DNA of 44,019 nt, taken from IMG/VR virus record IMGVR_UViG_3300011200_000001; one strand, given 5' to 3'. The translations under genes and the position numbers were made by a program. Numbering within the stretch: position 1 is the first letter of the stretch; each line of letters begins with the position of its first letter. The notes beneath the pieces were generated by a model. It was not told where the DNA came from. It was given only the letters and a program-made list of their open reading frames with translations, and ran no database searches. Source of the stretch: a virus. Below are positions 3,559 through 44,019 of the stretch, piece by piece.

Positions 3559-3969
3559 CTATTCCGGGTCAACAGGAGTGGGGTCAGGGCGGGCGGGCCA
3601 GTGCCAGGTGTGAGGTTCGGTGTCCTCCCCCTGACACGCGCTCGATGCCCAGAACGTGTCGTTGCCGTCAAGGAAGACCTGCCCCTGAACGGTGGTTGAT
3701 TCGGGACTCCAGACGCGAACGATCAACATCGGGAAGGTGTCACCTGCTGCCACTGCGTTGCCGACGTGAATGATGACCCCAGAACTTGCGTCGATGTGCT
3801 CGATGCGGTGTGACTCGGCATCTTTCCGACGCTTGTTGATCGCGAGAGCATCGTGCGCGCCGATGGTAAAGATGACGATCCTGCCGATGGTGGGGGCTGT
3901 CATGGTGCTCCTTCTGATGTTGTGCGGGTAGATCGGGCAGTCACCGAAGTAGCCGATTGGCTCGGTCAT
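3559..3969 (-). CDS. hypothetical protein (136 aa, or 114 aa from ATG 3903)
   Basis: Both ATG 3969 (GAGGAGGAGG upstream) and ATG 3903 (GAAGGAG upstream) have strong ribosome-binding sites. The codons between them have high GC3. Confidence 0.65.
   Translation of the reverse strand: MTEPIGYFGDCPIYPHNIRRSTMTAPTIGRIVIFTIGAHDALAINKRRKDAESHRIEHIDASSGVIIHVGNAVAAGDTFPMLIVRVWSPESTTVQGQVFLDGNDTFWASSACQGEDTEPHTWHWPARPDPTPVDPE
3560..3587 (-). repeat. tandem-TGACCC element, copy c (inside the last codons of 3559..3969)
   Basis: The minus strand reads CTGACCCCACTCCTGTTGACCCGGAATAG. Confidence 0.7.
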
Positions 3970-3987
3970 CCTCCTCCTCTGTCGCGC

Positions 3988-4014
3988 ATCTCCGGGTCTT
4001 AGGTAGTGGGGTCA
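3988..4014 (-). repeat. tandem-TGACCC element, copy d (starts on the stop codon of 4012..4170)
   Basis: The minus strand reads TGACCCCACTACCTAAGACCCGGAGAT. Confidence 0.7.
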
Positions 4015-4170
4015 GGCGGGCGTCACACGCAGCCATTCCGGGCTGTCCATAATCGCGGCGCGGGCACCAGTGAGCCGTGGCTGTTGCTCCTTCGGTAGTG
4101 CCGCCAGTTCCTTGACGACGTCTCGCAGATGCTCGTGGAGCCAGCCATGTGGGAACAGTTGGTCGTTCAT
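4012..4170 (-). CDS. small hypothetical protein (52 aa)
   Basis: Own translation: MNDQLFPHGWLHEHLRDVVKELAALPKEQQPRLTGARAAIMDSPEWLRVTPA. AAAGGAG sits 4-5 nt before the ATG at 4170. The ORF is below the track length cut-off. Confidence 0.55.
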   Translation of the reverse strand: MNDQLFPHGWLHEHLRDVVKELAALPKEQQPRLTGARAAIMDSPEWLRVTPA

Positions 4171-4249
4171 CTCACTCCTTTCGAGGCGCTGGTATGCCGG
4201 GTCGAAAGGAGGGGGTGACGCGGGTCACCTAGACGGATGTGTATAGAGG

Positions 4250-4278
4250 TAGACAGGACTCACTCATCTCTGTATAGT
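4250..4278 (+). promoter_or_regulatory. sigma-A/sigma-70-like promoter TAGACA-17 nt-TATAGT for the plus-strand cassette
   Basis: TAGACA at 4250-4255, a 17-nt spacer, then TATAGT at 4273-4278. GGAGAGGG and the ATG at 4322 follow about 45 nt downstream. Confidence 0.5.
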
Positions 4279-4287
4279 CATATACAG
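4270..4287. promoter_or_regulatory. palindromic operator candidate CTGTATA-gtca-TATACAG overlapping the -10 hexamer
   Basis: A perfect 7+7 inverted repeat. An extra TGTATAG half-site lies at 4240-4246. Confidence 0.5.
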
Positions 4288-4321
4288 AAGGGCAGGAGAT
4301 ACCAGCCCGGGAGAGGGAAAC

Positions 4322-4714
4322 ATGCCGATTCTCAGCCAGGCCACAGACCACCGACTCACCCTCGGTGACGAGCTGGACACCATCCTCGCGGCGACCTACG
4401 CGCAGGACGGTCGGGCACTCTTCGACGCCAAGGCCGCGCACTACAGCAACGTGATCTCGCTCCACGGCATGGAGCACCCGACGATGGCAGCCCTGATGGT
4501 GGCTCACCCGTACATCGAAGGCGCGCCGCTGGAGGTCGAGCTCATCACTGAGTACCAGGCCAGCAACATCGCGAAGCTCGAAGCCAAGATCGGTCGCAGC
4601 TGGACGGAGTTCACGGACGCACCCTCTGGGACCCCGGCGACCAGCATCGCCCAGCGCGACTTCGTCAAGCTCATGAAGGTCCTCCTCGCGGCCGCTGGGT
4701 ACCCGAAGTCATGA
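4322..4714 (+). CDS. hypothetical protein (130 aa), first gene of the opposite-strand cassette
   Basis: ATG follows GGAGAGGG. Typical GC3. The stop overlaps the next start (ATGA). No motif recognised. Confidence 0.8.
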   Translation: MPILSQATDHRLTLGDELDTILAATYAQDGRALFDAKAAHYSNVISLHGMEHPTMAALMVAHPYIEGAPLEVELITEYQASNIAKLEAKIGRSWTEFTDAPSGTPATSIAQRDFVKLMKVLLAAAGYPKS

Positions 4715-5154
4715 TCACCACCACGCAGCTTGTAGAGATCGTCCAGGCCCACGGATACGCCGACTACGACGCCGCGACTGTCGAGGGGTTGATCGAGGAC
4801 GCGGTCCTTGAGCTGAACGGCGACGACGGCGGCATGGACACCATCATCAAGTCGGGAGACGAGTACACCGACGACGCAGGGATGTGGATTACGAGCTACC
4901 TGGAGGAGCAGATTCATCCCGATCCCCAGAAGGTCGCGGTCGACGCAGAGGAGGCAGAGCTCGCCGAGATGGACCAGCGGGCCGACCTCAAGCGCATGGC
5001 AGAGAACTACCGCCGCACGCACCAGTGGGATCTCAATGCGCTTGAGTATCTCCGGGTCGCGATGCGTGAGGCCGCCCCGACGATGAGCGAGTCCGAAATC
5101 GCCAGAGTCGCAGGCGTCACCCGGATGACCGTCCGCAAAGCCCTTGGGAAGTGA
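4711..5154 (+). CDS. acidic protein with C-terminal helix-turn-helix (147 aa)
   Basis: The C-terminus SESEIARVAGVTRMTVRKALGK looks like an HTH. The N-terminal half is rich in D/E. The gene is coupled to the upstream gene. Confidence 0.8.
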   Translation: MITTTQLVEIVQAHGYADYDAATVEGLIEDAVLELNGDDGGMDTIIKSGDEYTDDAGMWITSYLEEQIHPDPQKVAVDAEEAELAEMDQRADLKRMAENYRRTHQWDLNALEYLRVAMREAAPTMSESEIARVAGVTRMTVRKALGK

Positions 5155-5165
5155 CCCCGAAAGGT

Positions 5166-5182
5166 GTGGCGAGAGGCGCCAC
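5166..5182. terminator. hairpin GTGGCG-agagg-CGCCAC between convergent genes (weak bidirectional terminator candidate)
   Basis: A 6-bp GC stem followed by tatt on the plus strand. It lies 12 nt after the stop at 5154. Confidence 0.3.
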
Positions 5183-5210
5183 TATTCCGGGTCACTGTGG
5201 TCTCGGGTCA
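5182..5210 (-). repeat. tandem-TGACCC element, copy e (starts on the stop codon of 5208..5402)
   Basis: The minus strand reads TGACCCGAGACCACAGTGACCCGGAATAG. Confidence 0.65.
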
Positions 5211-5402
5211 AGGGCCGCAAGCGTCGGGACCGTCCGAGGTCCCAACGCGGTGCTTATCCAGCGCCTCGATCCTGTCGATGAGTGCGATCAGCCACTCAGG
5301 GTTTACTGAGACGTAGGACTTGCCGGTGTCGATGCAGTGCTGGGCGTTCTGTCGAGCCATCTCAGCACTGAGCATGGGGTCGTTGGTCATGTACTGGATC
5401 AT
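5208..5402 (-). CDS. hypothetical protein (64 aa)
   Basis: ATG at 5402 is directly preceded by GAAGGAGG. No motif recognised. Confidence 0.6.
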   Translation of the reverse strand: MIQYMTNDPMLSAEMARQNAQHCIDTGKSYVSVNPEWLIALIDRIEALDKHRVGTSDGPDACGP

Positions 5403-5432
5403 CCTCCTTCGGCGCTAGAGATGGGGTGGTCG

Positions 5433-5459
5433 TTATCCGGGTCAACAGTGGTGGGGTCA
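5433..5459 (-). repeat. tandem-TGACCC element, copy a (starts on the stop codon of the deacetylase gene)
   Basis: The minus strand reads TGACCCCACCACTGTTGACCCGGATAA. Confidence 0.75.
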
Positions 5460-6857
5460 GAGGCCCCTGGCGATCACTTCACCGAGAGGGCGCACAGCGA
5501 TGCCAGAAGCCGAGATGTTGCCCATGACGGTGGTGAAGTTCGCTGTCGAATATTCGGTAGCCACAGTGGGCGCGGCCACGATGTTGTGAAAGTTGATGAT
5601 GAGCCACGACTTGTTGGCAACGGCTTCGGCTACCGCTGTCGCGATGGTCGCTGTCGTCGTGGTGTTCACGACCTCTAGGCACCGCAGGAGGTACTGGTTG
5701 CCAGGGGGCCACGTCTCGTGGTTGACGTTGTCACCGATGGTGCGGCCCGTGGCGAAAACCTTCGCGACCTGGGCGAGGCTGTTGGCGTCGAACCCCCCAC
5801 CGGGGTAGGCGACATGCTGAGACCCTGCGGCGAAGCCGTTGTCGATGTACCACTTACGCAGGGCAACGAATCGGGCCAGGAGAACGTCAGGGGCCACATT
5901 GTCGAAGGTGTCGATGTCGTGGGCGGTGATCTCCCAACCGTGAACGTCCTGCAAGGTATGAAGGTTCGCCAAGGTCATGAACGTGGGGTCATCGACGCCG
6001 CTTGGGATGATGTTCGCGGTGCCTCTGATGCCGTATGCGTCCATGATGGGGCGGGCAGTGAGGAACTGGGACTCTTTGCCGTCATCGAAACACACCGACA
6101 CAGCGCCAGCGGGCGGCTCCGGGAACGCACCGATCCCACCGAACCAGACATTGACCGGGCCAGATACGCCGGTGTCCTTGACTTGGACTCGGAGAGCGTT
6201 GATGGCAGCCCTGTTCGGTGTTCCGGTCGCTCCGTCTGTGGCGAAGTTCAGGGTCACACGGGTCCAGGTGTTCGCCACGAGGGGGTTCCGTGGTCCGCCG
6301 TTCTTGTATGCCTCGAAGTTGAAGTAGTTGGTCCACGTCGATGCGTCAGAGCCGAGCAGGATACGGACGGACGCGGTCAGTACCGGGTTGTCTACCTTGA
6401 TCCACACCACCACCTGTTTGCCAGTCAGATCGTATGGGCCGACGTTGGCGTTCTTCTGCACGGTGCAGTTGGTATTCAGTGTGGTGGTGGTCAGTTTGAG
6501 CGACTGTGTCCCGAGCGCGTAAGTCGTCGTGTCGTCCGCGAGGGCACCAGCCGCTGACTGTTTGCTGAACCCGTGCCCGGCAGCGAAAAGCGTGAGCATC
6601 TGGGTGACCTGCGGGGTCGGCACCCGGACCGGTCTGTCTGACGTCAGAAACGTGGAATTTAGTAGTGCCCGCTCGGCGGTGATCGCAGCGTCAAGCTCGG
6701 CCTGCGAAACCGTCCACCCAGCATCAGGGGGGACCGTTCCAGGAGGCACCACCGGGGCGGCAGCCACAACCCAGCCGAGGGTGTCCCACCCGTCATAGAA
6801 GGCTTTGTCGAGGACGGTCTTGACGACGCCGGGCAACGAAGGGTGCGACATCCACAT
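5457..6857 (-). CDS. tail-fibre-like protein with C-terminal polysaccharide deacetylase (NodB/CE4-type) domain
   Basis: CE4-like motifs are present: VCFDDG, GWEITAHD and VAYPGGGF. A central beta-rich domain looks CBM-like. The first 30 aa match 27/30 with ORF 36919..38388. Confidence 0.75.
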   Translation of the reverse strand: MWMSHPSLPGVVKTVLDKAFYDGWDTLGWVVAAAPVVPPGTVPPDAGWTVSQAELDAAITAERALLNSTFLTSDRPVRVPTPQVTQMLTLFAAGHGFSKQSAAGALADDTTTYALGTQSLKLTTTTLNTNCTVQKNANVGPYDLTGKQVVVWIKVDNPVLTASVRILLGSDASTWTNYFNFEAYKNGGPRNPLVANTWTRVTLNFATDGATGTPNRAAINALRVQVKDTGVSGPVNVWFGGIGAFPEPPAGAVSVCFDDGKESQFLTARPIMDAYGIRGTANIIPSGVDDPTFMTLANLHTLQDVHGWEITAHDIDTFDNVAPDVLLARFVALRKWYIDNGFAAGSQHVAYPGGGFDANSLAQVAKVFATGRTIGDNVNHETWPPGNQYLLRCLEVVNTTTTATIATAVAEAVANKSWLIINFHNIVAAPTVATEYSTANFTTVMGNISASGIAVRPLGEVIARGL

Positions 6858-11807: not shown

Positions 11808-12862
11808 GCGACCAGTCGCCCGAGCGGGGTCGGCGCCCAAGAGTCACGCCAACCGGGGGTGACCCGCTTCGTGGACAGGTCCGCCCAGCCGATGTGTCCC
11901 CTGTCGAGGAGCTCGACACGCTGCGGGCCCATGACCGAGACCCGGTCTGCGTGCGGGAGGTCGTCGAACACAGCGCGCGCGTCGGGCAGGACTGACGCCG
12001 GCTCATCCAAACCACCGAACCCGAGCTGCGCCCACGTCTTAGTGACCGGGACCCCGACGCAGCGGCCCTGCTGGTGGTCGTGAGGCCCAGCATCGTCGAC
12101 GTCGTGCGTGGACCCATGCAGTGACCAACACGACGGGCAGGTCCGTTTGTCGAGCTGGGCGACCCACTGCCAACCGGTCAACGTGTCAGCGTTCGCCTTG
12201 TTCGCCGCGGTGGTCGCGGCCCGGTGCGCGTCAAGGATCTCGGTGCGGGCGATGACCAGGGCACGGTTGCGGCCGCCTTCGAACGCGCCCTGGACCCGGT
12301 CCAGCATGATGCTCGCGGCCTTGCGGGGGTTGTCGCCGATCGCAACACCGCGGATCAGCGCCGATCGCATGGCCTGCTCAGCCTGGGCAGACAACGGCCG
12401 GGACAGCGCAGTCACCCGGCCGGTGGTCCTCTTCACGACCGCGTCCAGGGCGCGGGGGTCGACCCGGTTGAACGACGCCGCGAGCTCGGCCTGCGTCCCG
12501 GCAACTGGCGGGAGCTGTGAGGCGGTGAGCCGGGCCTGCCACTGCGCGGCCGCGGTGGTGAGGTTGGGCACGTCCTGCAGGACGGTGATGGGGAGGTCCT
12601 TGACCAGCTGGTTGAGTGCGTCACGGGTGACCTTGACGGCGTTGCGCGCACGTTGCGCGCGGTTGATCTTGGTCCGCGATGGCCACGCCCCGTCGGTGGA
12701 CGTGGCGACCAGGTCGTTGATGGCGGCGTCCCACTCGGCGGCGACCTCGGTCCATGCCGCGCCCCACGCGGTGATGAGGGCCTGAGTGGCTGCGTCGACG
12801 GGGGCGTTGACGGCGATCCGCATCCCGGAGAGGAGCCGCATGGTGGCTTTGGTAACAGCCAT
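11804..12862 (-). CDS. head morphogenesis protein (SPP1 gp7 / Mu F-like)
   Basis: The motif ...WVAQLDKRTCPSCWSLHGSTH... is typical of the MuF family. The gene lies downstream of the portal gene. Confidence 0.8.
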   Translation of the reverse strand: MAVTKATMRLLSGMRIAVNAPVDAATQALITAWGAAWTEVAAEWDAAINDLVATSTDGAWPSRTKINRAQRARNAVKVTRDALNQLVKDLPITVLQDVPNLTTAAAQWQARLTASQLPPVAGTQAELAASFNRVDPRALDAVVKRTTGRVTALSRPLSAQAEQAMRSALIRGVAIGDNPRKAASIMLDRVQGAFEGGRNRALVIARTEILDAHRAATTAANKANADTLTGWQWVAQLDKRTCPSCWSLHGSTHDVDDAGPHDHQQGRCVGVPVTKTWAQLGFGGLDEPASVLPDARAVFDDLPHADRVSVMGPQRVELLDRGHIGWADLSTKRVTPGWRDSWAPTPLGRLVA

Positions 12863-13122
12863 CAGCCGTCAAAGTCCGTACGTCGCGCCTCTTCGAGCGA
12901 CATCCCACCCGGCAGGGAATCCAACCACTCGATGCGTGTCGACCCGCCGTGGCCGTGGATGATCTCGACGTCCTGGATACTCGGCCAGATCACTGTCGAC
13001 TGGTGATCCCCACGCCACCTGATCACACACACACCGTCGGGGAAGAGCACCCCGTCAGCGACGACACCGGTACCTGAGACGCCACTCACATCAACGTCGC
13101 GCGCCAGCTGGAAGCGGCGCAT
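12862..13122 (-). CDS. hypothetical protein (86 aa)
   Basis: ATG at 13122 overlaps the upstream stop. The stop overlaps the MuF start. Confidence 0.6.
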   Translation of the reverse strand: MRRFQLARDVDVSGVSGTGVVADGVLFPDGVCVIRWRGDHQSTVIWPSIQDVEIIHGHGGSTRIEWLDSLPGGMSLEEARRTDFDG

Positions 13123-13409
13123 CAGACTCCGACCCACTCGCCGTCGGTGATGAAGCCGTGCGTCTTGCAGCGACCGCAGAGGATCGACGGGGTGACGGTC
13201 AACGGCTCGACCTGGACCACGTGCCAGCCTGCCTCGTTGATCGGCAGCAGCGTCTCGGCGCGCACCGGGATCAGCGCGCCACCCTCGCCAAGGTGGGACA
13301 TGCAGTCGTGGAACCACCAGAAATGGACGCCGTCATCGTCCATGTGAAACGTCGGAGCGGCGCGCAACCTCTCGGTGACCCGACGACCTATCTCCTCGTA
13401 GAGGGTCAC
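13122..13409 (-). CDS. hypothetical protein, DUF6527-like pattern
   Basis: GTG start overlapping the upstream stop (GTGA). The pattern W..F.DC...(P)SILCGRCKTHGFITDGEW resembles DUF6527 proteins. This is a memory-based call. Confidence 0.55.
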   Translation of the reverse strand: MTLYEEIGRRVTERLRAAPTFHMDDDGVHFWWFHDCMSHLGEGGALIPVRAETLLPINEAGWHVVQVEPLTVTPSILCGRCKTHGFITDGEWVGV

Positions 13410-13615
13410 AGCGCGGCGGCGGGGTCGATGTCGTCACGGGGGACCCGGCGGTGGTAGCCAAAGGCGTCGACGTCCTCTGGTGGCTTCGCGGGGTCGTGCT
13501 CGTCTCGGCCGTACGGGCACACGTAGCGAGCGAGCATCACAACGCAGTGCTTCCCTCCTCCGAACGGGCTGGCGCTCGGGGTGAAGCCGTGGCTCGTGGC
13601 GTAACTGTCACCCAT
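13406..13615 (-). CDS. hypothetical protein (69 aa)
   Basis: ATG at 13615 overlaps the portal stop (TGATG). Confidence 0.55.
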   Translation of the reverse strand: MGDSYATSHGFTPSASPFGGGKHCVVMLARYVCPYGRDEHDPAKPPEDVDAFGYHRRVPRDDIDPAAAL

Positions 13616-15225
13616 CACAGCACCGTGGGCGGGACGTCGCCGTGCAGGACCGCGTTCTGCTGCGCCCGCGCCGCGGCAGCATCAGCGGGGTCAACCCAGT
13701 TCCCCTGATCATCCACCAACTCGGCGAGCAGTTCGTCGATGTCCCGGACCCCGAGGAGCTCCAGGATCAGGCGGGCCACAGTCAGCGGCGGGAGTTTGCC
13801 CGTCGAGTCAGCCTTCACGATCGCCTCAAGCAGGGCAGGCACGTCGGGCTGGTTGATCGGCGGGAACGTGATGTCGATGGTCCGTGGCTGCCCGGCCGCG
13901 AGCTCGATGACCTCCACGCCCGTCCCAGGCTCGCGACGGACCGTGCCCTTCAGCCGGCCCTGCGGTGCCTTGATCGCCTGGTCGATGACGTACGACAGGA
14001 TCCGGCGGTGCAGCTCAGCCCACCGGTCGCGGCGCATCCCCATCCCCAGCTCCGTCGGCTGATCCAGGGTCGCCGCGACCGCCCGGGCACCGGTCTGGCC
14101 CGGGTCGCACAGCAGCATCGTGACCGGGAGGTCCAACGCGGCCGCGACCATCGCAGCCAACGGCCGGCCACTGTCACTGTCGATCGTGGCCCCGGTCTTA
14201 GGGATGGCCTCAAGGCCGGCGCCTTCACTCATGATCGCCGTGGCACCGACCCCCAGGGACTGCCCGGTGCGCGGGTCCGTGGTGGGTGCCGCAGCCAGCT
14301 TGGAGCGGACCTGAGCGGCGTTCCTACCTTTGGCGGTGGCCCGCCACGCGAACCTGCTCAGCGCCTTGACGAGGCGCGCCCAGTCCTCGAGGAACTCCTT
14401 GTATGACCGCGCCCACGCCAACGCGTTGTACCCGTCGCCGATGCCGAACTTCCACCCGCTCAGCCGGTTCACCGACCCGTGCAGGACCGGGGACGCCCAC
14501 ATGACCTCGGCGCCGTTGATGGTCTTGGGCCGCATCAGGGGGTAGTACCCGAGCGCCGGGTAGAACGCCTTCATCTGCTTGGTCTCCGTGCGCCCCGTCT
14601 CAAGGTTGATGGTCGTCGCCGTCCACGACCGCTCGTAGTACCACGGGTCGTCACGGTCGTCAGGGTTGCAGATGACGTCCAACACCTCGTCGAACGGCAA
14701 CGACCTGGCCTGCACCCGCCCAGTCAGCGGCGACGTGAACAGCGCGAGGAACACGTTCCCGTCGGTGAAGAACGCCCGCTCGAGCTCCTCCCGGGCCTGG
14801 CTCGACGTCAGGGACGCCCGGTTGGACTCGTCATCCAGGAACGCCTGCACGACGGCGTTGACGTCCTGCTCGCCGGCGTCGGTGTCACCGCGGGCCGCGA
14901 TGGACACGCCCCCACCCCACACGTACGCGATCCGCAGGTTGGACCCGCGGCCCATGAGCGGGTTCACGACGGTCATGACCCGGCACAGCTCCGAGGACCG
15001 GAGCAGGCCCTGCCGGTTGAACTCGGAGTCGAACGACGACGACATCCGCAGCCAGCCGACGTCCTCGAGCGCGAGCTGCGCGTCAACCAGCGACTCGCTC
15101 ATCACTTCGAGGGTGTTCTCGGCCGCGTCGAGCTGGCCCAGGAGCGTGGATTCACGGGACGCTTCGGCTTCAGTGATGTCGTCGACGCCGTCCAGGAGTG
15201 CGGTGGTGCGGTCGAACAGGCCCAC
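13615..15225 (-). CDS. portal protein
   Basis: 536 aa, directly downstream of the large terminase gene. GTG start 5 nt after GAGAGGAG. The sequence is typical of SPP1-type portals. Confidence 0.85.
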   Translation of the reverse strand: MGLFDRTTALLDGVDDITEAEASRESTLLGQLDAAENTLEVMSESLVDAQLALEDVGWLRMSSSFDSEFNRQGLLRSSELCRVMTVVNPLMGRGSNLRIAYVWGGGVSIAARGDTDAGEQDVNAVVQAFLDDESNRASLTSSQAREELERAFFTDGNVFLALFTSPLTGRVQARSLPFDEVLDVICNPDDRDDPWYYERSWTATTINLETGRTETKQMKAFYPALGYYPLMRPKTINGAEVMWASPVLHGSVNRLSGWKFGIGDGYNALAWARSYKEFLEDWARLVKALSRFAWRATAKGRNAAQVRSKLAAAPTTDPRTGQSLGVGATAIMSEGAGLEAIPKTGATIDSDSGRPLAAMVAAALDLPVTMLLCDPGQTGARAVAATLDQPTELGMGMRRDRWAELHRRILSYVIDQAIKAPQGRLKGTVRREPGTGVEVIELAAGQPRTIDITFPPINQPDVPALLEAIVKADSTGKLPPLTVARLILELLGVRDIDELLAELVDDQGNWVDPADAAAARAQQNAVLHGDVPPTVL

Positions 15226-31353: not shown

Positions 31354-31382
31354 ACGATACACGGCGTAGACGGGCCTGTCTA
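31354..31382 (-). promoter_or_regulatory. leftward (early lytic) promoter candidate TAGACA-17 nt-TATCGT
   Basis: Read on the minus strand. The -35 hexamer and spacer are covered by operator O1. Confidence 0.45.
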
Positions 31383-31383
31383 C
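31366..31383. promoter_or_regulatory. operator O1: GTAGAC-GGGCCT-GTCTAC
   Basis: Perfect 6-bp inverted half-sites. An extra GTAGAC half-site lies at 31326-31331. Confidence 0.65.
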
Positions 31384-31435: not shown

Positions 31436-31464
31436 TTGGAACTTGTAGACGGGCTGTCTACAGT
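31436..31464 (+). promoter_or_regulatory. rightward (repressor) promoter candidate TTGGAA-17 nt-TACAGT
   Basis: The hexamers were read directly. Operator O2 occupies the spacer and the -10. Confidence 0.45.
31445..31461. promoter_or_regulatory. operator O2: GTAGAC-GGGCT-GTCTAC
   Basis: Perfect 6-bp inverted half-sites. An extra GTCTAC half-site lies at 31481-31486. Confidence 0.65.
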
Positions 31465-31506: not shown

Positions 31507-32223
31507 GTGAGCGAACTGTCGGAGGCGCTGAAGACCGCGCAGGAGCAGCATGGCGGGTGGTCGGTGCGGCGCATCGAGCGCGAGATGGAAACCGCCGGGC
31601 ACAGCGTGTCCTACAGCACCGTTGCGCTCTACCTGAACGGAAGGCACGGCGTACCAGAGGACTCCACACTGTCGGCGTTCGCCGCGATCTTTCCGGAGCT
31701 GAGCATCAGCAGGCTGCGCCACCTCGCGCACCTGCCCCCAGGTGAGAACGACCCTTACATCCCGCCCGCGGACGCGAGCCGGCTATCTCGCACCCAGCGC
31801 CAGGCCCTCGATGCGGTCATTGCGGCCATGCTCGAACGAGAGGGCATGGGCTTCCCGAGCGGCAGTTTCCGCTCTTCGACCTCCACCAGAGCGGGCTCCA
31901 AAGTAGATATCCAGGGTCCCGACTTCGTAATAGAAGTCAAGAACCGGGGGAGCCAACCAGTCGATGCCCCACAACTGGTCTTTCACTATCGTGTCGATCA
32001 CACCAAAGGGGTCATGGAGGTTGCCGAGATGATCCAGTCGCGACTCGATTCCATCGAGGAGCTCGAACAGATGGTGGAACAAGAGATGGAAGACGAACAC
32101 CGCGAGTACCCGGTGCCGACGCCAGATGTGGGCAAACCCACCCCGGGGGAGCAGGCGCGTCGGAAACTGAAGGCGGATGCCGAACACCAAGACCAGTTGC
32201 GTCCGAGTCACAACAAACCATGA
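31507..32223 (+). CDS. immunity repressor (N-terminal HTH) with a ~110-aa lower-GC C-terminal extension
   Basis: GTG at 31507 lies 5 nt after AAGGTGG. The HTH is WSVRRIEREMETAGHSVSYSTVALYLNG. The gene is divergent from the Cro-like gene across the operators. Confidence 0.7.
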   Translation: MSELSEALKTAQEQHGGWSVRRIEREMETAGHSVSYSTVALYLNGRHGVPEDSTLSAFAAIFPELSISRLRHLAHLPPGENDPYIPPADASRLSRTQRQALDAVIAAMLEREGMGFPSGSFRSSTSTRAGSKVDIQGPDFVIEVKNRGSQPVDAPQLVFHYRVDHTKGVMEVAEMIQSRLDSIEELEQMVEQEMEDEHREYPVPTPDVGKPTPGEQARRKLKADAEHQDQLRPSHNKP

Positions 32224-32236
32224 GAGGGCGCCCAAG

Positions 32237-32569
32237 ATGCGTCGAATAGCAGGAGTGACGGCCGCACTGCTCACGATCGTTCTAGTGCCGGGCTGCGCTG
32301 CCGGTGATGGTCAATCGAAGACGGTCAGCAAATCGAGCCTTCCAGGGTGGCCACTGACTGTCGACTCAGGAGTTCTCGAGTGCGAAGGATCTGGTGGCAT
32401 GGGCAAGGTCACGTTCGTCGTTGACGGAAAAACCTATGGGGTCAACGGAACAGCCAGAGCGGACCAGGACAACCTCGACATCCAGATGCTCTGGGCCGAC
32501 GCAGAGACCGCTGGCCTCAAGAAAGACATCAGCCCGTTGATCGATGAAGGCCTGAAGCTCTGCGAATAG
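32237..32569 (+). CDS. lipoprotein (110 aa), DUF2511/YebY-like pattern
   Basis: Signal peptide with lipobox: MRRIAGVTAALLTIVLVPGC. The features W.LTV...LEC...Y.VNG.A and a terminal LC resemble YebY. GC is lower than in flanking genes. Confidence 0.7.
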   Translation: MRRIAGVTAALLTIVLVPGCAAGDGQSKTVSKSSLPGWPLTVDSGVLECEGSGGMGKVTFVVDGKTYGVNGTARADQDNLDIQMLWADAETAGLKKDISPLIDEGLKLCE

Positions 32570-34048: not shown

Positions 34049-34483
34049 ATGAACGTCAAACTGAGCGCAGCGTTGGTCGCATCACTGGCCCTGGTTCTGG
34101 CTGGGTGTTCTAGTGGGCCAACCCCTGCGGAGACTCGGGCGTCGGCGGCCGCGCTCAGGGAAGCGATGCAGGTCGAGATCCGCTATGAGGTTGAGGGTGA
34201 GCGGTTGTCGTACGGGGACAAGATGCCGTACGCGGACGTGACGATGCAGACCCCGACCGGGACGTCGCAGTCATCGCCGGACCTGCCCATGGGGACCGAG
34301 GATGGTCGTGTCGGGTTGATGCAGACATTTGCTGCCGGAGCTTTCGTCTATCTGTCTGTCCAGAACAATGGCTCGACAAACGATGTGACGTGTCGTATCA
34401 CCGGTGAGGCTGGGCAAGTGATCAGTGAAAACACTTCATCGAGTCAGTATGGGATCGCGAGTTGTAAGGGCCAGGCGCGGTGA
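34049..34483 (+). CDS. MmpS-like lipoprotein (144 aa)
   Basis: Lipobox LVLAGCSS. The C-terminal domain pattern IRYEVEG...VQNNGSTNDVTCRITGEAGQVI...ASC resembles the MmpS family. Codon usage is atypical, with lower GC3. Confidence 0.7.
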   Translation: MNVKLSAALVASLALVLAGCSSGPTPAETRASAAALREAMQVEIRYEVEGERLSYGDKMPYADVTMQTPTGTSQSSPDLPMGTEDGRVGLMQTFAAGAFVYLSVQNNGSTNDVTCRITGEAGQVISENTSSSQYGIASCKGQAR

Positions 34484-41490: not shown

Positions 41491-44019
41491 CAGTTCCCCC
41501 CGTAGACGAGTCCGTCGACCAGCTGCTGAGTGTGGCCATCAACGGTGGCGGACACGATCTGGGTCAACTCACGGTCCCCGATCTTGACGACGATGGACTG
41601 GATACGACCCGGCGCCGGCCTGGCCCCGTAGGTGGACGCGGCGACACCTTGGGGCAGCGCCCACCGCGGCAGTGCTGCAACCTTCGGTGCGTACCTGGCC
41701 TCCACCGCTGCCTGACGTAAGGCCAGCGACTTCTCGCGGTTGACCGAGATGTTCATGTCGTGGGACAGGCGGCTGCGCACCGCGGGGCTTCGGGCTGCCT
41801 GCGAGGCCAGGGTGTACGCCTCGTCATCGGCCTGCATAACCAGCTGGTCGGCCAACGTCCCGAACCCGCGTTTGCGCAGGTAGTCGACGTTGCGCAGGAA
41901 CGCCAGGGTGGAGGCGTTGGACTTGGTCGCCGCGGCGTGGAACCGGGACGAGTAGGGCCTGGTCGCGAGGTTGCGCGCGGCCTCGGCGCCCCTGAGTCTG
42001 ACTGTCGCCGCCCGCAACGTCCCGCGGCTGTTGGCCAGGCGGTCCTCTGCGGCGTTGACCTGCCGGGTCGTGTGGCCCTTGGTGTGCCGCAGCTTGTAGA
42101 GGGCGTTCTCTGCGGTGTGCAGCGCGGTGGTGGCCTTGGCCTGACGTAGGCGCATGGCGGTGATGTCCGCGGCGCTGGGGGAACTGGTGGGCATCCGACC
42201 CGTGATCGCGGAGAAGTCAGCCGAGACGAACCCGCCAGTGGCGAAGTGCTGAGGTGAGCCGACCGGGCCACCATCGGCGAACCGGTTGACGCTGTGCAAC
42301 GCGGCGAGGCCGATGCGCTTGGTGGACGCGGCGTTGATGACGAACTCACCATTGCTCAGCAACGCCGGGATCGAGTCGGAGGTCCCGGTGCCGGGGCCGG
42401 TGATGTACCCGCCAGTGGCCACCTTCGGTCCCAGCCTTGCATCCTGCGAGGCCCGGATCGACTTCGTCACCGTGTAGTTCAGATGCGTCGTCTTGATGAA
42501 CACTTCTTTGCCGCGCAGTGCGTTGATCTGACGTTGCAGATCGGCGATCCTCGCCCTACCTGCTGCGGTGTTGGCGTCGATTCCAGGCTTCCTGCCCTGG
42601 CGGATCGCGTTGATCTGTGCCTTGAGCGCGGTGATCTTCGCGTCCGCGGCGGCCTTGTCGATCTGCACCTTGGTCAGGTGCTGCTTGGGGATCTTGATAA
42701 TCGAGTCCGCGTAGGCGTTGGCCTGGGCCTTCGTCATCCCGAACTTGATACCCGTGGCCACCAGCGCGGACCGCGAGGACACCAGCGAGGCCCGCATCTT
42801 CGCCTCGGACCCGGTCTCCGCGTAGATGCTCTTGGCCAGGTTCAGCGCCGCACTGGCCTGCCCGTCCAGGGCAGCAGCGTTGTCGCGCTGCTTCGACTTG
42901 TTGATGTCCAGGCCCTTGCCGTTCTTCCGCAACGCGTCCGTGGCAGCCACCTGGGCGTCCTTCAAGGCCCGCTGCGCCGAACGTGTCGACAGGACCACCA
43001 GACCCGCGTCCTGCAACGACTGCACCTCGGCGTCGATGGCCTCCTTGGCAGCGGTTGCTGACTCTTTCAGCGCAGTCTGTGCAGAGGTCAACTTCTCGGT
43101 GCCACCAGCAGCGCCGCCCGCAGCCTCACCCGCCGCCTTCTGGGCCGCAGCCAACTGAGGCAGCGCAGCCATGACAGTCGCCACCGAGTAGCCCTGCTTG
43201 GTCGCCTCGTCGGTGACCCGCCTGAGCAGCACGGCAGCCTGCTCAGCGTTCCCGCTGGCGACCATGGTCGCCAAGCCGCTGTCGAGGGTCTTGAAGAACT
43301 CGATGGACTGGTTGGTCTCCGAGGTCTCAAACCCAGTCAGGTTCCCCGGCGAGATCGAGGAGAAGAACGCGCTGACCTTATGCCCAAGCTCAGGACTGAA
43401 CACGTTGTTGATCGTGTTACCCAGGTCGTCGAAGTGGCGGTTGATCAGGTCCGCGCTGCCGCCGCTGGCCTTGCCGCTGGTCGCGAACTGGGTCAGCGCC
43501 TTGCTCGCTGCCAGCGCTTCCGGGGCGAGTTGGCCGAACGTCCCGCTGACCTTGGTCGCAGCAGCATCCAAGATGGGGATACCAACGAGGGCAACAGTGG
43601 ACGCGATACCCAGGCCCTTGATGGCCGTCGCGGCAACGGCGCCCGAGCGACCCATGTTCGTCAGGGCGACTTGTGCAGCCAGCGCCTTCGGGACCAGGGT
43701 CACCATGGCGCCACCAGTCAGCAGCGCAGCCGCGGTGACGGCACCGAGGGCGAGCGCGCCCTGCTGCACAGGCCCCGGCAAGGCCCCGTACCGGTCAACG
43801 ACGCCTTGCAGGTTGCTGGTCATCGAGCGCAGCATCCCGTTCGTGGCTGACCCGGACACGATCAGCACCGAGGACAGCGACCCGCCAAGACGCTCGACGT
43901 CGCCCTTGAGGTTGTCCGTGAGCATCGCGGCCTGCTCGGCTGCGAACCCGGCATCGTTGACCTTCTTCGTCCAGGTGTCGATAGCCCCCGCGCCACCTTC
44001 GTACAGGATGCGCGCCGCG
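41490..44019 (-). CDS. tail tape measure protein, C-terminal part (43943-44019 duplicates 1-77; the true start is GTG at 982 across the junction)
   Basis: The frame is open to the window end and continuous with 982..1. The product is long, Ala-rich and helical. Confidence 0.9.
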   Translation of the reverse strand, partial: AARILYEGGAGAIDTWTKKVNDAGFAAEQAAMLTDNLKGDVERLGGSLSSVLIVSGSATNGMLRSMTSNLQGVVDRYGALPGPVQQGALALGAVTAAALLTGGAMVTLVPKALAAQVALTNMGRSGAVAATAIKGLGIASTVALVGIPILDAAATKVSGTFGQLAPEALAASKALTQFATSGKASGGSADLINRHFDDLGNTINNVFSPELGHKVSAFFSSISPGNLTGFETSETNQSIEFFKTLDSGLATMVASGNAEQAAVLLRRVTDEATKQGYSVATVMAALPQLAAAQKAAGEAAGGAAGGTEKLTSAQTALKESATAAKEAIDAEVQSLQDAGLVVLSTRSAQRALKDAQVAATDALRKNGKGLDINKSKQRDNAAALDGQASAALNLAKSIYAETGSEAKMRASLVSSRSALVATGIKFGMTKAQANAYADSIIKIPKQHLTKVQIDKAAADAKITALKAQINAIRQGRKPGIDANTAAGRARIADLQRQINALRGKEVFIKTTHLNYTVTKSIRASQDARLGPKVATGGYITGPGTGTSDSIPALLSNGEFVINAASTKRIGLAALHSVNRFADGGPVGSPQHFATGGFVSADFSAITGRMPTSSPSAADITAMRLRQAKATTALHTAENALYKLRHTKGHTTRQVNAAEDRLANSRGTLRAATVRLRGAEAARNLATRPYSSRFHAAATKSNASTLAFLRNVDYLRKRGFGTLADQLVMQADDEAYTLASQAARSPAVRSRLSHDMNISVNREKSLALRQAAVEARYAPKVAALPRWALPQGVAASTYGARPAPGRIQSIVVKIGDRELTQIVSATVDGHTQQLVDGLVYGGN

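Follow-up and report, generated by a model that had tools for sequence, protein, structure and literature searches.

The virus record IMGVR_UViG_3300011200_000001 of IMG/VR, a stretch of 44,019 nucleotides that was analysed as a whole and is called the window in the following, is a phage genome of 66% GC in which nearly all genes lie on the minus strand. Amid its minus-strand connector and tail genes, two small genes are encoded on the plus strand, which we refer to as gene 1 and gene 2, and together with their control region as the cassette. Their open reading frames (ORFs) overlap by 4 nt (ATGA), a promoter with two palindromic, operator-like sites precedes them, and a hairpin is found on either side. 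The original prediction for this locus described a self-contained and autoregulated unit with the layout of a toxin-antitoxin, abortive-infection or superinfection-defence module. All sequence features it named were found where it had placed them (Table 1). With a third-position GC content of 0.88 and 0.84, respectively, gene 1 and gene 2 resemble the other genes of the phage.

Table 1. Coordinates of the cassette, its control elements and further features of the window discussed in the text (HTH, helix-turn-helix; SD, Shine-Dalgarno; SAS, start-associated sequence).
Feature	Position	Strand	Description
Gene 1	4322-4714	+	130 aa, pI 5.4, predicted all-helical, no transmembrane segment
Gene 2	4711-5154	+	147 aa; N-domain 1-84, long helix 72-121, HTH 123-147 (nt 5077-5151)
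Promoter (predicted)	TAGACA 4250-4255, 17 nt, TATAGT 4273-4278	+	10/12 match to sigma-70-like consensus
O1, operator-like	4269-4288	+	TCTGTATA-gtca-TATACAGA, exact 8+8 palindrome; holds -10 TATAGT
O2, operator-like	4240-4255	+	TGTATAGAGGTAGACA; right half is the -35 hexamer TAGACA
5' leader	4286-4321	+	36 nt, AGAAGGGCAGGAGATACCAGCCCGGGAGAGGGAAAC; SD/SAS-like GGGAGAGGGAAAC at 4309-4321 abuts ATG
Upstream hairpin	4214-4229		GGTGAC-gcgg-GTCACC; -11.7 kcal/mol, z -2.8
Downstream compound GC hairpin	5150-5196		between convergent stops of gene 2 (5154) and 64-aa late gene (5208)
Accessory block	3559-6857		~3.3 kb between 142-aa connector-region gene and 108-aa tail gene; holds cassette
136-aa gene	3559-3969	-	phrog_19300
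Deacetylase-like gene	5457-6857	-	466 aa; weak NodB/polysaccharide-deacetylase similarity (Pfam E 0.006, NCBIfam HfsH E 2e-4)
Cro-like gene	31355-31038	-
Immunity palindrome	31366-31383		GTAGACGGGCCTGTCTAC
Immunity palindrome	31445-31461		GTAGACGGGCTGTCTAC
Repressor-like gene	31507-32223	+	238 aa, HTH_31
DUF2511 lipoprotein gene	32237-32569	+	lipobox

Gene 2 had been described as acidic in its N-terminal half and as ending in an HTH, and both parts of this description hold. The N-domain (residues 1-84) has a pI of 4.05, the C-terminal half is basic and of DNA-binding type, and the AlphaFold2 (AF2) model, with a pLDDT of 83 overall and >90 over the C-terminal 60 residues, shows a helical N-domain that is followed by a single helix of 50 residues and, at the terminus, by a two-helix HTH. 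Foldseek delivered no global match to this model and only local matches of the HTH, to IstA, DeoR, Lrp and KorA; the top-ranked extracytoplasmic function (ECF) sigma factors were rejected (TM ~0.25, rmsd >14 Å). At the sequence level the nearest solved HTH is that of the GntR-type protein YvoA, which stayed below threshold, and the Pfam GntR model reached 17.4 bits against a cutoff of 27, over residues 125-146 only. Gene 2 ends directly behind the recognition helix, without wing or effector domain, and does not qualify as a member of the GntR family. The only PADLOC match was mad1 (E 0.0024), restricted to the 23-residue HTH. Directly, gene 2 matches phrog_7061 (E 4e-4), and phrog_2311 was reached through its relatives. 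A word-index protein search found 13 relatives of gene 2 and none of gene 1. Among 14 family members the last ~30 residues (…IRxAAxTMSESEIARVAGVTRMTVRKALGK) are almost invariant, whereas the N-terminal parts fall into several types.

The original prediction recognised neither protein, which no longer holds for gene 2 in the light of its PHROG matches and holds in part for gene 1. The product of the latter is mildly acidic, lacks a membrane segment, a signal peptide and a catalytic motif, and matched nothing in Pfam, PHROG, PADLOC or NCBIfam. Its AF2 model is unstable, with one of five models confident and a pTM of 0.48. Foldseek found nothing significant for gene 1 in either the PDB or BFVD. 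SSAP/ERF-like helices recurred as weak fold matches (E 0.04-3) and were not taken as evidence. However, the orphan status suggested by the word-index search was overturned by direct comparison, which revealed a homologue with 43% identity (E 2e-37) on the phage contig L001, and by an exhaustive HMMER search with a gene-1 profile over 1.84 billion representatives. The latter added only P0018, a 96-aa protein in which the C-terminal half of gene 1 is combined with a zinc ribbon; a further match, P0017, had the look of a eukaryotic tandem-repeat protein and was dismissed as an artefact. In total, three relatives of gene 1 are available: in L001, in L222 (a C-terminal fragment) and in L190 (P0018, the C-terminal half only).

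As described originally, the promoter consists of TAGACA and TATAGT at a spacing of 17 nt, and a consensus scan found no other sigma-70-like site between positions 3900 and 5500, a region for which shuffled sequence gives 0.4 sites on average. The 7+7 palindrome reported over the -10 (4270-4287) is exact and extends to 8+8, which yields O1. The additional TGTATAG noted at 4240-4246 turned out to lie, together with the -35, in a second copy of the palindrome: O2 is an imperfect copy of O1, detected as a 2-mismatch match at 4239-4256 and spaced 31 bp from it. These are the only two occurrences of the O1 pattern at <=3 mismatches in 44 kb, where 0.07 would be expected. Since the palindrome is found nowhere else in the genome, the cassette appears as a self-contained unit. 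That TATAGT acts as -10 is supported by L058, L059 and many other loci with related promoters, in which the ATG of the first gene begins 7 nt past this hexamer and the predicted transcripts are leaderless; the start site in the window is accordingly predicted at ~A4286. A literature lookup of the operator string delivered noise only.

The control region is far better conserved than the genes behind it. Between the window and L001, 55 of 57 positions are identical over 4266-4322, compared to ~60-65% in the coding DNA and 43-46% identity of the proteins. The same block of promoter, operators and leader was found in L002, L143, L190, L195 and L196, and among these loci it stands before five different first genes. 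In the resulting seven-way alignment O2 and O1 are invariant (GTATAG..GTAGACA is fixed in all 7 loci), as are 33 of the 36 leader positions, again with five different first genes downstream; GGGAGAGGGAAAC is invariant or nearly so in 7 family loci. In contrast, the 13-nt spacer between O2 and O1 and everything 5' of O2 have diverged. Fixed operators and leader around a diverged spacer point to discrete functional elements and not to recent common descent. Rfam gave no match in 3900-5500, leader included, and the leader hairpin at 4290-4308 is weak (z -1.3). Furthermore, the predicted mRNA begins with 18 nt (4286-4303, AGAAGGGCAGGAGATACC) that are likewise invariant in 7 loci and by eye resemble an extended Shine-Dalgarno sequence, or the complement of the 16S rRNA tail, ~20 nt 5' of the real one. 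They may serve ribosomes as a standby site or be bound by a protein.

Relatives of the cassette allow its parts to be followed through other phages. The closest long relative of gene 2, P0004 (46% identity), is encoded on L001, a phage contig of 41 kb, where it is preceded by the gene 1 homologue with the same 4-nt overlap and where the pair lies between integrase and lysis genes. Right after the stop codon of this gene-2 homologue, L001 carries a short tandem array (2050-2100, TTTCCAGTAGC, ~4 copies) that is absent from the window. L222, a contig of 547 bp, shows the same pairing as the window. In L190, the gene behind P0018 encodes a protein of 68 aa that amounts to gene 2 without its N-terminal half, and this pair adjoins a tRNA-derived att site, convergent with tail-fibre genes. 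A survey of gene neighbourhoods, as suggested with the original prediction, shows a pair that is kept in L001 and L222 and mobile among genome positions. The linkage between operator and HTH was tested without bias on loci found by protein homology only: of the distinct ones, 12 of 12 carry promoter, O2 and O1, 10 in the canonical form and two, L003-type and L193/194, as a variant with 22-bp spacing and the same half-sites. A degenerate promoter scan of metagenome and viral contigs found ~40 high-GC loci. The search pattern did not include the left half of O2, TGTATAG, which is nevertheless strongly conserved in 26 promoter fragments. A 16-mer palindrome scan of viral contigs yielded mostly chance AT-rich matches, which were removed by GC content and context. 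Megablast and tblastn searches with the region and the two proteins found nothing among 50,697 phage records.

A second line of evidence comes from Cluster K mycobacteriophages. Start-associated sequences (SAS) and their extended form (ESAS) have been catalogued there since 2011 (Pope et al., 2011; PMC3203893) and later as similar elements in Microbacterium phages of Cluster EF (PMC7302621), without known function or binding protein; for the inverted repeats, binding by an unidentified regulator other than the immunity repressor was suggested (PMC11373665). We found a family member with the N-domain type that we call AWLGD to match phrog_2311 (E 1e-12) and, in tblastn, gene 34/36 of Cluster K mycobacteriophages (E 7e-8, gene 2 of L172 against DarthP), a gene family of 271 Cluster K records that includes ZoeJ gp36. 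The profile of the window's family aligned with DarthP gp36 at an hhalign probability of 90% (E 1.5e-6) over 56 columns that cover the long helix and the HTH. Upstream of gene 36 in DarthP, BarrelRoll, ZoeJ, OkiRoe and Fionnbharth, a GC hairpin, two imperfect palindromes ~30 bp apart and a 13-bp start-associated sequence are present, and the palindromes overlap TTGAC-type -35 and -10 hexamers; together they correspond to the ESAS/SAS elements of Pope et al. (PMC3203893). The SAS consensus of Clusters K and EF, GGGATAGGAGCCC (13 bp, 3-9 bp from the start codon), and GGGAGAGGGAAAC of the window, which ends at the ATG, are identical at 8 of 13 positions. In Clusters K1/K2/K5/K6 the recognition helix reads DRLTVRK(Y/W) and the repeats TGTTG…CAACA, in Cluster K4 (Fionnbharth) DRMTLRDW and GTGTGG…CTACAC, and in the window's family TRMTVRKA and TGTATAG…CTATACA. 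Since helix and repeats change together, it is supported, yet not proven, that this HTH family reads the repeats of its own promoters. The autoregulation originally proposed for gene 2 is supported, on the level of sequence comparison, by this co-variation and by the linkage of operator and HTH, and gene 2 is probably an autorepressor that acts on O1 and O2.

If gene 2 is the constant part of the family, the first gene is the variable one. At least 9 types of first genes occur, without any pairwise similarity among the 9 compared, or the first gene is absent. At least 6 unrelated first genes are found next to the AWLGD type of the gene-2 N-domain; L002 and L143 have this type without any first gene. 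That one N-domain type goes with many first genes or with none fits a regulator with exchangeable cargo and poorly fits a toxin-specific antitoxin; gene 1 is predicted to hold the exchangeable 'payload' position of this cassette family. The first-gene types had no significant match in Pfam, NCBIfam or PHROG, only weak sub-threshold ones for the alternatives to gene 1, and in PADLOC a single weak match was obtained (PDC-M35B, E 0.0027, L054 type). Directly 3' of AWLGD-type HTH genes, a repeat protein recurs that is built of 'TRYFT…W..G.DDFVD(Q/E)ITEEQARAFAPAAFTG' units (L002 833-1501, L196 994-1416 and L107 ~5610-5800, minus strand). No Pfam or PHROG model matches it significantly; it may constitute a further class of payload.

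These observations bear on the toxin-antitoxin reading, according to which the cassette would be a type II system of reversed order like HigBA or MqsRA, with gene 1 as toxin and gene 2 as antitoxin that neutralises by its acidic N-domain and autoregulates by its HTH. Two small genes with a 4-nt overlap and a palindromic operator upstream, the combination of an acidic N-terminal half (pI 4.05) with a basic, DNA-binding C-terminal half in gene 2, and the mobile and patchily distributed nature of the cassette are what such a system would show. In addition, within the window subtype only, the N-domains of gene 1 and gene 2 are jointly present in the window, L001 and L222 and jointly missing in L190 (n=4). 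However, the promiscuity of the AWLGD N-domain and the dissimilarity of the first genes speak against it, and so do the lack of any toxin model in Pfam, NCBIfam and PHROGs beside the one weak PADLOC match, and the mildly acidic, helical gene 1 product without catalytic motif. Moreover, neither gp36 of Cluster K, the homologue of gene 2, nor the neighbouring gp37 is toxic, and the effect of gp38 is limited to small colonies (PMC11373665). With first genes swapped or absent for one and the same N-domain type, the toxin-antitoxin interpretation of the original prediction is not supported, and we consider it improbable.

The position of the cassette within the late genes is best explained by insertion. 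Related structural modules were recovered by anchoring on the 142-aa connector-region gene. In one of them, L212, homologues of the capsid, three connector and 142-aa genes are directly followed by the 108-aa and tail tube genes, so that the accessory block is missing and the cassette is part of a ~3.3 kb insertion. As originally proposed, it forms an inserted transcription unit of its own. The GC content of the block is ~0.59-0.64, compared to 0.65-0.69 in the flanks. Its minus-strand genes encode proteins of 466 and 64 aa on one side of the cassette and of 52 and 136 aa on the other. The 466-aa protein could be a virion-associated or cell-surface-modifying enzyme. Homologues of the 136-aa gene occur on 13 viral contigs, none of which carries the neighbour genes of the window, and the gene appears to be a mobile accessory gene itself, which is why it failed as synteny anchor. 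In the light of L212, the view that the two gene products serve virion assembly or the tail as members of the structural operon, for which the position between connector and tail genes is the sole support, hardly deserves credence: both genes lie on the opposite strand behind their own promoter, they are absent from this related structural module, and homologous pairs stand beside integrase, lysis or att regions elsewhere. Besides, gene 2 is a DNA-binding protein according to its structural model. In other phages the family is usually placed where the late genes end and the integrase, immunity or att region begins, and in L001, L190, L172, L058 and L003 the cassette sits at genome positions other than that in the window; residence inside the tail genes is an unusual feature of the phage in the window.

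Taken together, we favour, with moderate confidence, the reading that the cassette is an autoregulated accessory operon (moron) in a ~3.3 kb head-tail/tail insertion, controlled by an ESAS-like promoter with two operators. The host primary sigma factor would start transcription at ~4286 from TAGACA-17-TATAGT, and the mRNA would consist of the conserved 36-nt leader, gene 1 and the translationally coupled gene 2. The gene 2 product would dimerise via its long helix, and its C-terminal HTH would bind O1, at the -10 and the start, and O2, at the -35, the centres of which are 31 bp apart and would lie on the same helix face. Binding would repress rather than activate the promoter, which would result in low and steady expression that is independent of late transcription, the latter running antisense over the cassette. 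Gene 2 would be the constant regulator of a portable cassette family and gene 1 its exchangeable payload.

Several points weigh against this reading. First, 'payload' names the position of gene 1 and says nothing on its role. Second, O1 is fixed by the search pattern in the pattern-derived loci, which limits their value as evidence for its conservation. Third, a gene-2-type HTH is missing behind the promoter copies of L147, L166 and L170, which include both short and longer contigs, and a different protein could thus read the palindrome. Fourth, gp36 of Cluster K is only a distant homologue, aligned over 56 columns, and direct BLASTP gives no more than 12/22 identities. Finally, the terminator of the cassette is not canonical, as discussed below. 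In L063, two divergent copies of promoter and operator (113-210) drive leaderless genes in opposite directions, one operon of which contains a 65-aa gene-2-type HTH. This switch-like layout suggests that in some phages the regulator may control more than its own operon.

When the cassette is expressed is a question on which the Cluster K phages give some guidance. In Adephagia and ZoeJ, genes 36-38 are expressed in lysogens according to RNA-seq, whereas the ESAS promoters of Adephagia genes 75, 76 and 92 are silent there (PMC11373665). By analogy to genes 36-38, expression of the cassette from the prophage is plausible. One might alternatively think of an immediate-early lytic unit, in which the host-type promoter fires on infection, gene 2 shuts it off and gene 1 is produced as a pulse. 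The near-consensus promoter that would need no activator, the fast rise and shut-off that negative autoregulation provides, the silent Adephagia promoters and the co-orientation of the unit with lytic genes in L058 and Cluster K agree with this idea. However, the homologous gene 36 operon is among those expressed in lysogens, and the cassette shares its strand with the repressor-like and lipoprotein genes, the only other clear plus-strand genes of the window. We regard an early lytic role as rather doubtful.

A further reading specifies what gene 1 might do for the prophage. In phi80, the opposite-strand gene of the 'noncontiguous operon' taiEcA/atiEcA interrupts the late operon and belongs to the tail-assembly-inhibition defence Tai (PMC11364771). 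Similarly, the payload of the cassette could serve defence or superinfection exclusion and be switched off by late antisense transcription during the phage's own lytic growth. Position and orientation match this precedent, the family usually occupies the slot between lysis genes and integrase that is home to lysogenically expressed accessory genes, and the first gene is highly variable, as arms-race genes would be. On the other hand, gene 1 matches no PADLOC model and has neither membrane segment nor signal peptide, and the PADLOC match of gene 2 is weak and confined to the HTH level. A defence role is compatible with the autoregulated accessory operon and refines it; we regard it as possible, though on the unlikely side. 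Equally speculative is a wider proposal that combines three ideas: that the gene-2/gp36 HTH family reads ESAS-type repeats in actinobacteriophages, that the cassette is a portable, self-limiting payload platform for lysogeny, and that, in the window subtype, gene 1 and the acidic N-domain of gene 2 form a novel kind of two-component unit, maybe a defence sensor and effector with transcriptional feedback that is silenced by late antisense transcription.

The original prediction had also linked the cassette to phage immunity. Both immunity palindromes sit between the cro-like gene and the 238-aa HTH_31 gene, and they are the only two sites of the form GTAGAC-N5/6-GTCTAC in the genome. The identity on which the link was built is real, as GTAGACAGG (4249-4257) and the right arm of the palindrome at 31366-31383 are the same sequence. 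In addition, the half-site TA(T/G)ACAG occurs 7 times in the genome versus 1.7 expected, with three copies in the cassette promoter and one in each immunity operator. Lysis-lysogeny cross-talk could thus be imagined in which a CI-like repressor acts on the GTAGAC half-sites of the cassette, or gene 2 on the immunity operators. However, GGTAGACA is invariant in the cassettes of unrelated phages as part of their own -35 and O2 half-site, and consequently cross-regulation is not needed to explain the identity of GTAGACAGG. The half-sites of the immunity palindromes are arranged opposite to those of O1, the cassette contains no GTAGAC-N5/6-GTCTAC palindrome, and the repressor-cro intergenic region of Adephagia lacks an ESAS motif (PMC11373665). 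The part of the claim that invoked the repressor is therefore not supported, and we judge cross-talk to be quite unlikely. The DUF2511 lipoprotein encoded next to the repressor-like gene is a candidate lysogenic-conversion or exclusion protein.

Both ends of the cassette are marked by secondary structures. In L001 the upstream hairpin is retained as (CCA)CGTGAC-gggg-GTCACG(TGG), its two arms having changed symmetrically. Situated between the cassette promoter and the divergent 52-aa late gene, it is a candidate for an insulator or a terminator. The downstream hairpin was present as originally reported, but its extent had been underestimated: instead of 5166-5182, a compound structure is formed, with -26.3 and -27.0 kcal/mol on the two strands (z -4.0 and -4.6) and 0 of 200 shuffles equally stable. 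Since it lacks a T-run, it is not a canonical terminator, and a terminator scan does not call it. It is possibly a factor-independent terminator without U-tract or an RNA-processing/stability element. Furthermore, an imperfect direct repeat of 21 nt (17/21; 4183-4203 and 5173-5193) flanks the cassette, its downstream copy lying within the hairpin. Its interpretation as insertion scar was dropped, because repeats of similar quality are common in the 1.5 kb region and chance is possible.

As to the phage itself, positions 1-77 of the window recur as 43943-44019, a 77-bp direct repeat at the contig ends, and L197 (Logan ERR4837112), an independent assembly, is 100% identical to the window and reads through the joined ends. 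The window thus holds the entire genome, which closes to a circle of ~43.9 kb. The phage that carries the cassette is a temperate siphophage of Actinobacteria. Its tape measure gene is broken by the window ends, with an ORF of 811 aa in the window versus 1144 aa in L197. In minus-strand order, the structural genes comprise terminase, portal, Mu-F-like head protein, protease/scaffold, decoration protein, major capsid and connector genes, then the 466-aa protein, the 64-aa ORF, the plus-strand pair and ORFs of 52, 136, 108 and 83 aa, and finally tail tube protein, chaperones and tape measure. Three small minus-strand genes lie between the portal and Mu-F-like head genes (12862-13618). For these, the precomputed annotation of L197 gives the labels Acb5 (86 aa) and, weakly, BubE (95 aa); our own hmmscan did not reproduce Acb5, and for 13122-13409 it found DUF6527 at 23.1 bits, below the cutoff of 23.6. 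A 144-aa plus-strand ORF at 34049-34483 (phrog_8241) sits between the lysis genes and the integrase, the slot that the cassette family usually occupies in other phages.

The window alone is a modest result, since it contains an accessory cassette of recognisable kind. Its relevance lies in the comparison: the co-variation of helix and repeats provides a concrete and cheaply testable candidate for the regulator of ESAS elements. The module of promoter, operators and repressor is compact, apparently self-limiting and available with or without leader, which makes it a possible genetic tool for Actinobacteria. The ~9 unrelated first genes are uncharacterised, probably expressed from prophages and worth screening for defence or host-modulating activity.

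If compared to known systems, the cassette shares with reversed-order type II toxin-antitoxin systems such as HigBA, MqsRA and HicAB two small overlapping genes, a C-terminal HTH in the second product and a palindromic operator over the promoter. In contrast to them, it shows no toxin homology and no constant partner, versions with the HTH gene only exist, and the closest characterised relatives are non-toxic. Like the taiEcA gene of phi80, it lies in opposite orientation in a tail-encoding late operon, with late transcription antisense through the gene. However, there is no similarity in sequence or fold to Tai, no counter-defence partner was identified, the host belongs to another phylum, and Tai genes lack an HTH autoregulator such as gene 2. 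Classical morons in the sense of Juhala and Hendrix, for instance the late-operon inserts of HK97 and lambda (reviewed in PMC7067206), resemble the cassette in having their own promoter and a downstream hairpin, in their insertion into the late operon, in their absence from the same site of a related phage and in a slightly deviant GC content. Unlike them, the cassette runs against the operon direction and combines a dedicated, predicted repressor with a two-site operator, and its family keeps the regulator and exchanges the cargo.

The closest counterpart is the gene 36 operon of Cluster K. Both comprise a GC hairpin, a SigA-like promoter, two imperfect inverted repeats over the -35 and -10 and a purine-rich sequence before the start codon; both encode a small protein that ends in a homologous long helix and HTH, and both occupy an accessory position outside the core modules. 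Yet the HTH gene comes first in the Cluster K operon and second in the window, the repeat sequences differ, and only the unit of the window is inserted on the opposite strand within tail genes. Cluster K genomes furthermore carry at least 7 ESAS copies, whereas one such promoter is found in the 44 kb of the window (<=3 mismatches). That both operate by the same mechanism is itself what we infer from these parallels. Against this background, to speak of an undescribed system went too far with regard to the regulatory part, for which a described, if unexplained, analogue exists; for gene 1 it is not contradicted by our results. What is new is the portable cassette with swapped cargo and, with it, a candidate ESAS regulator, whereas the regulatory design itself represents a variant of a described class.

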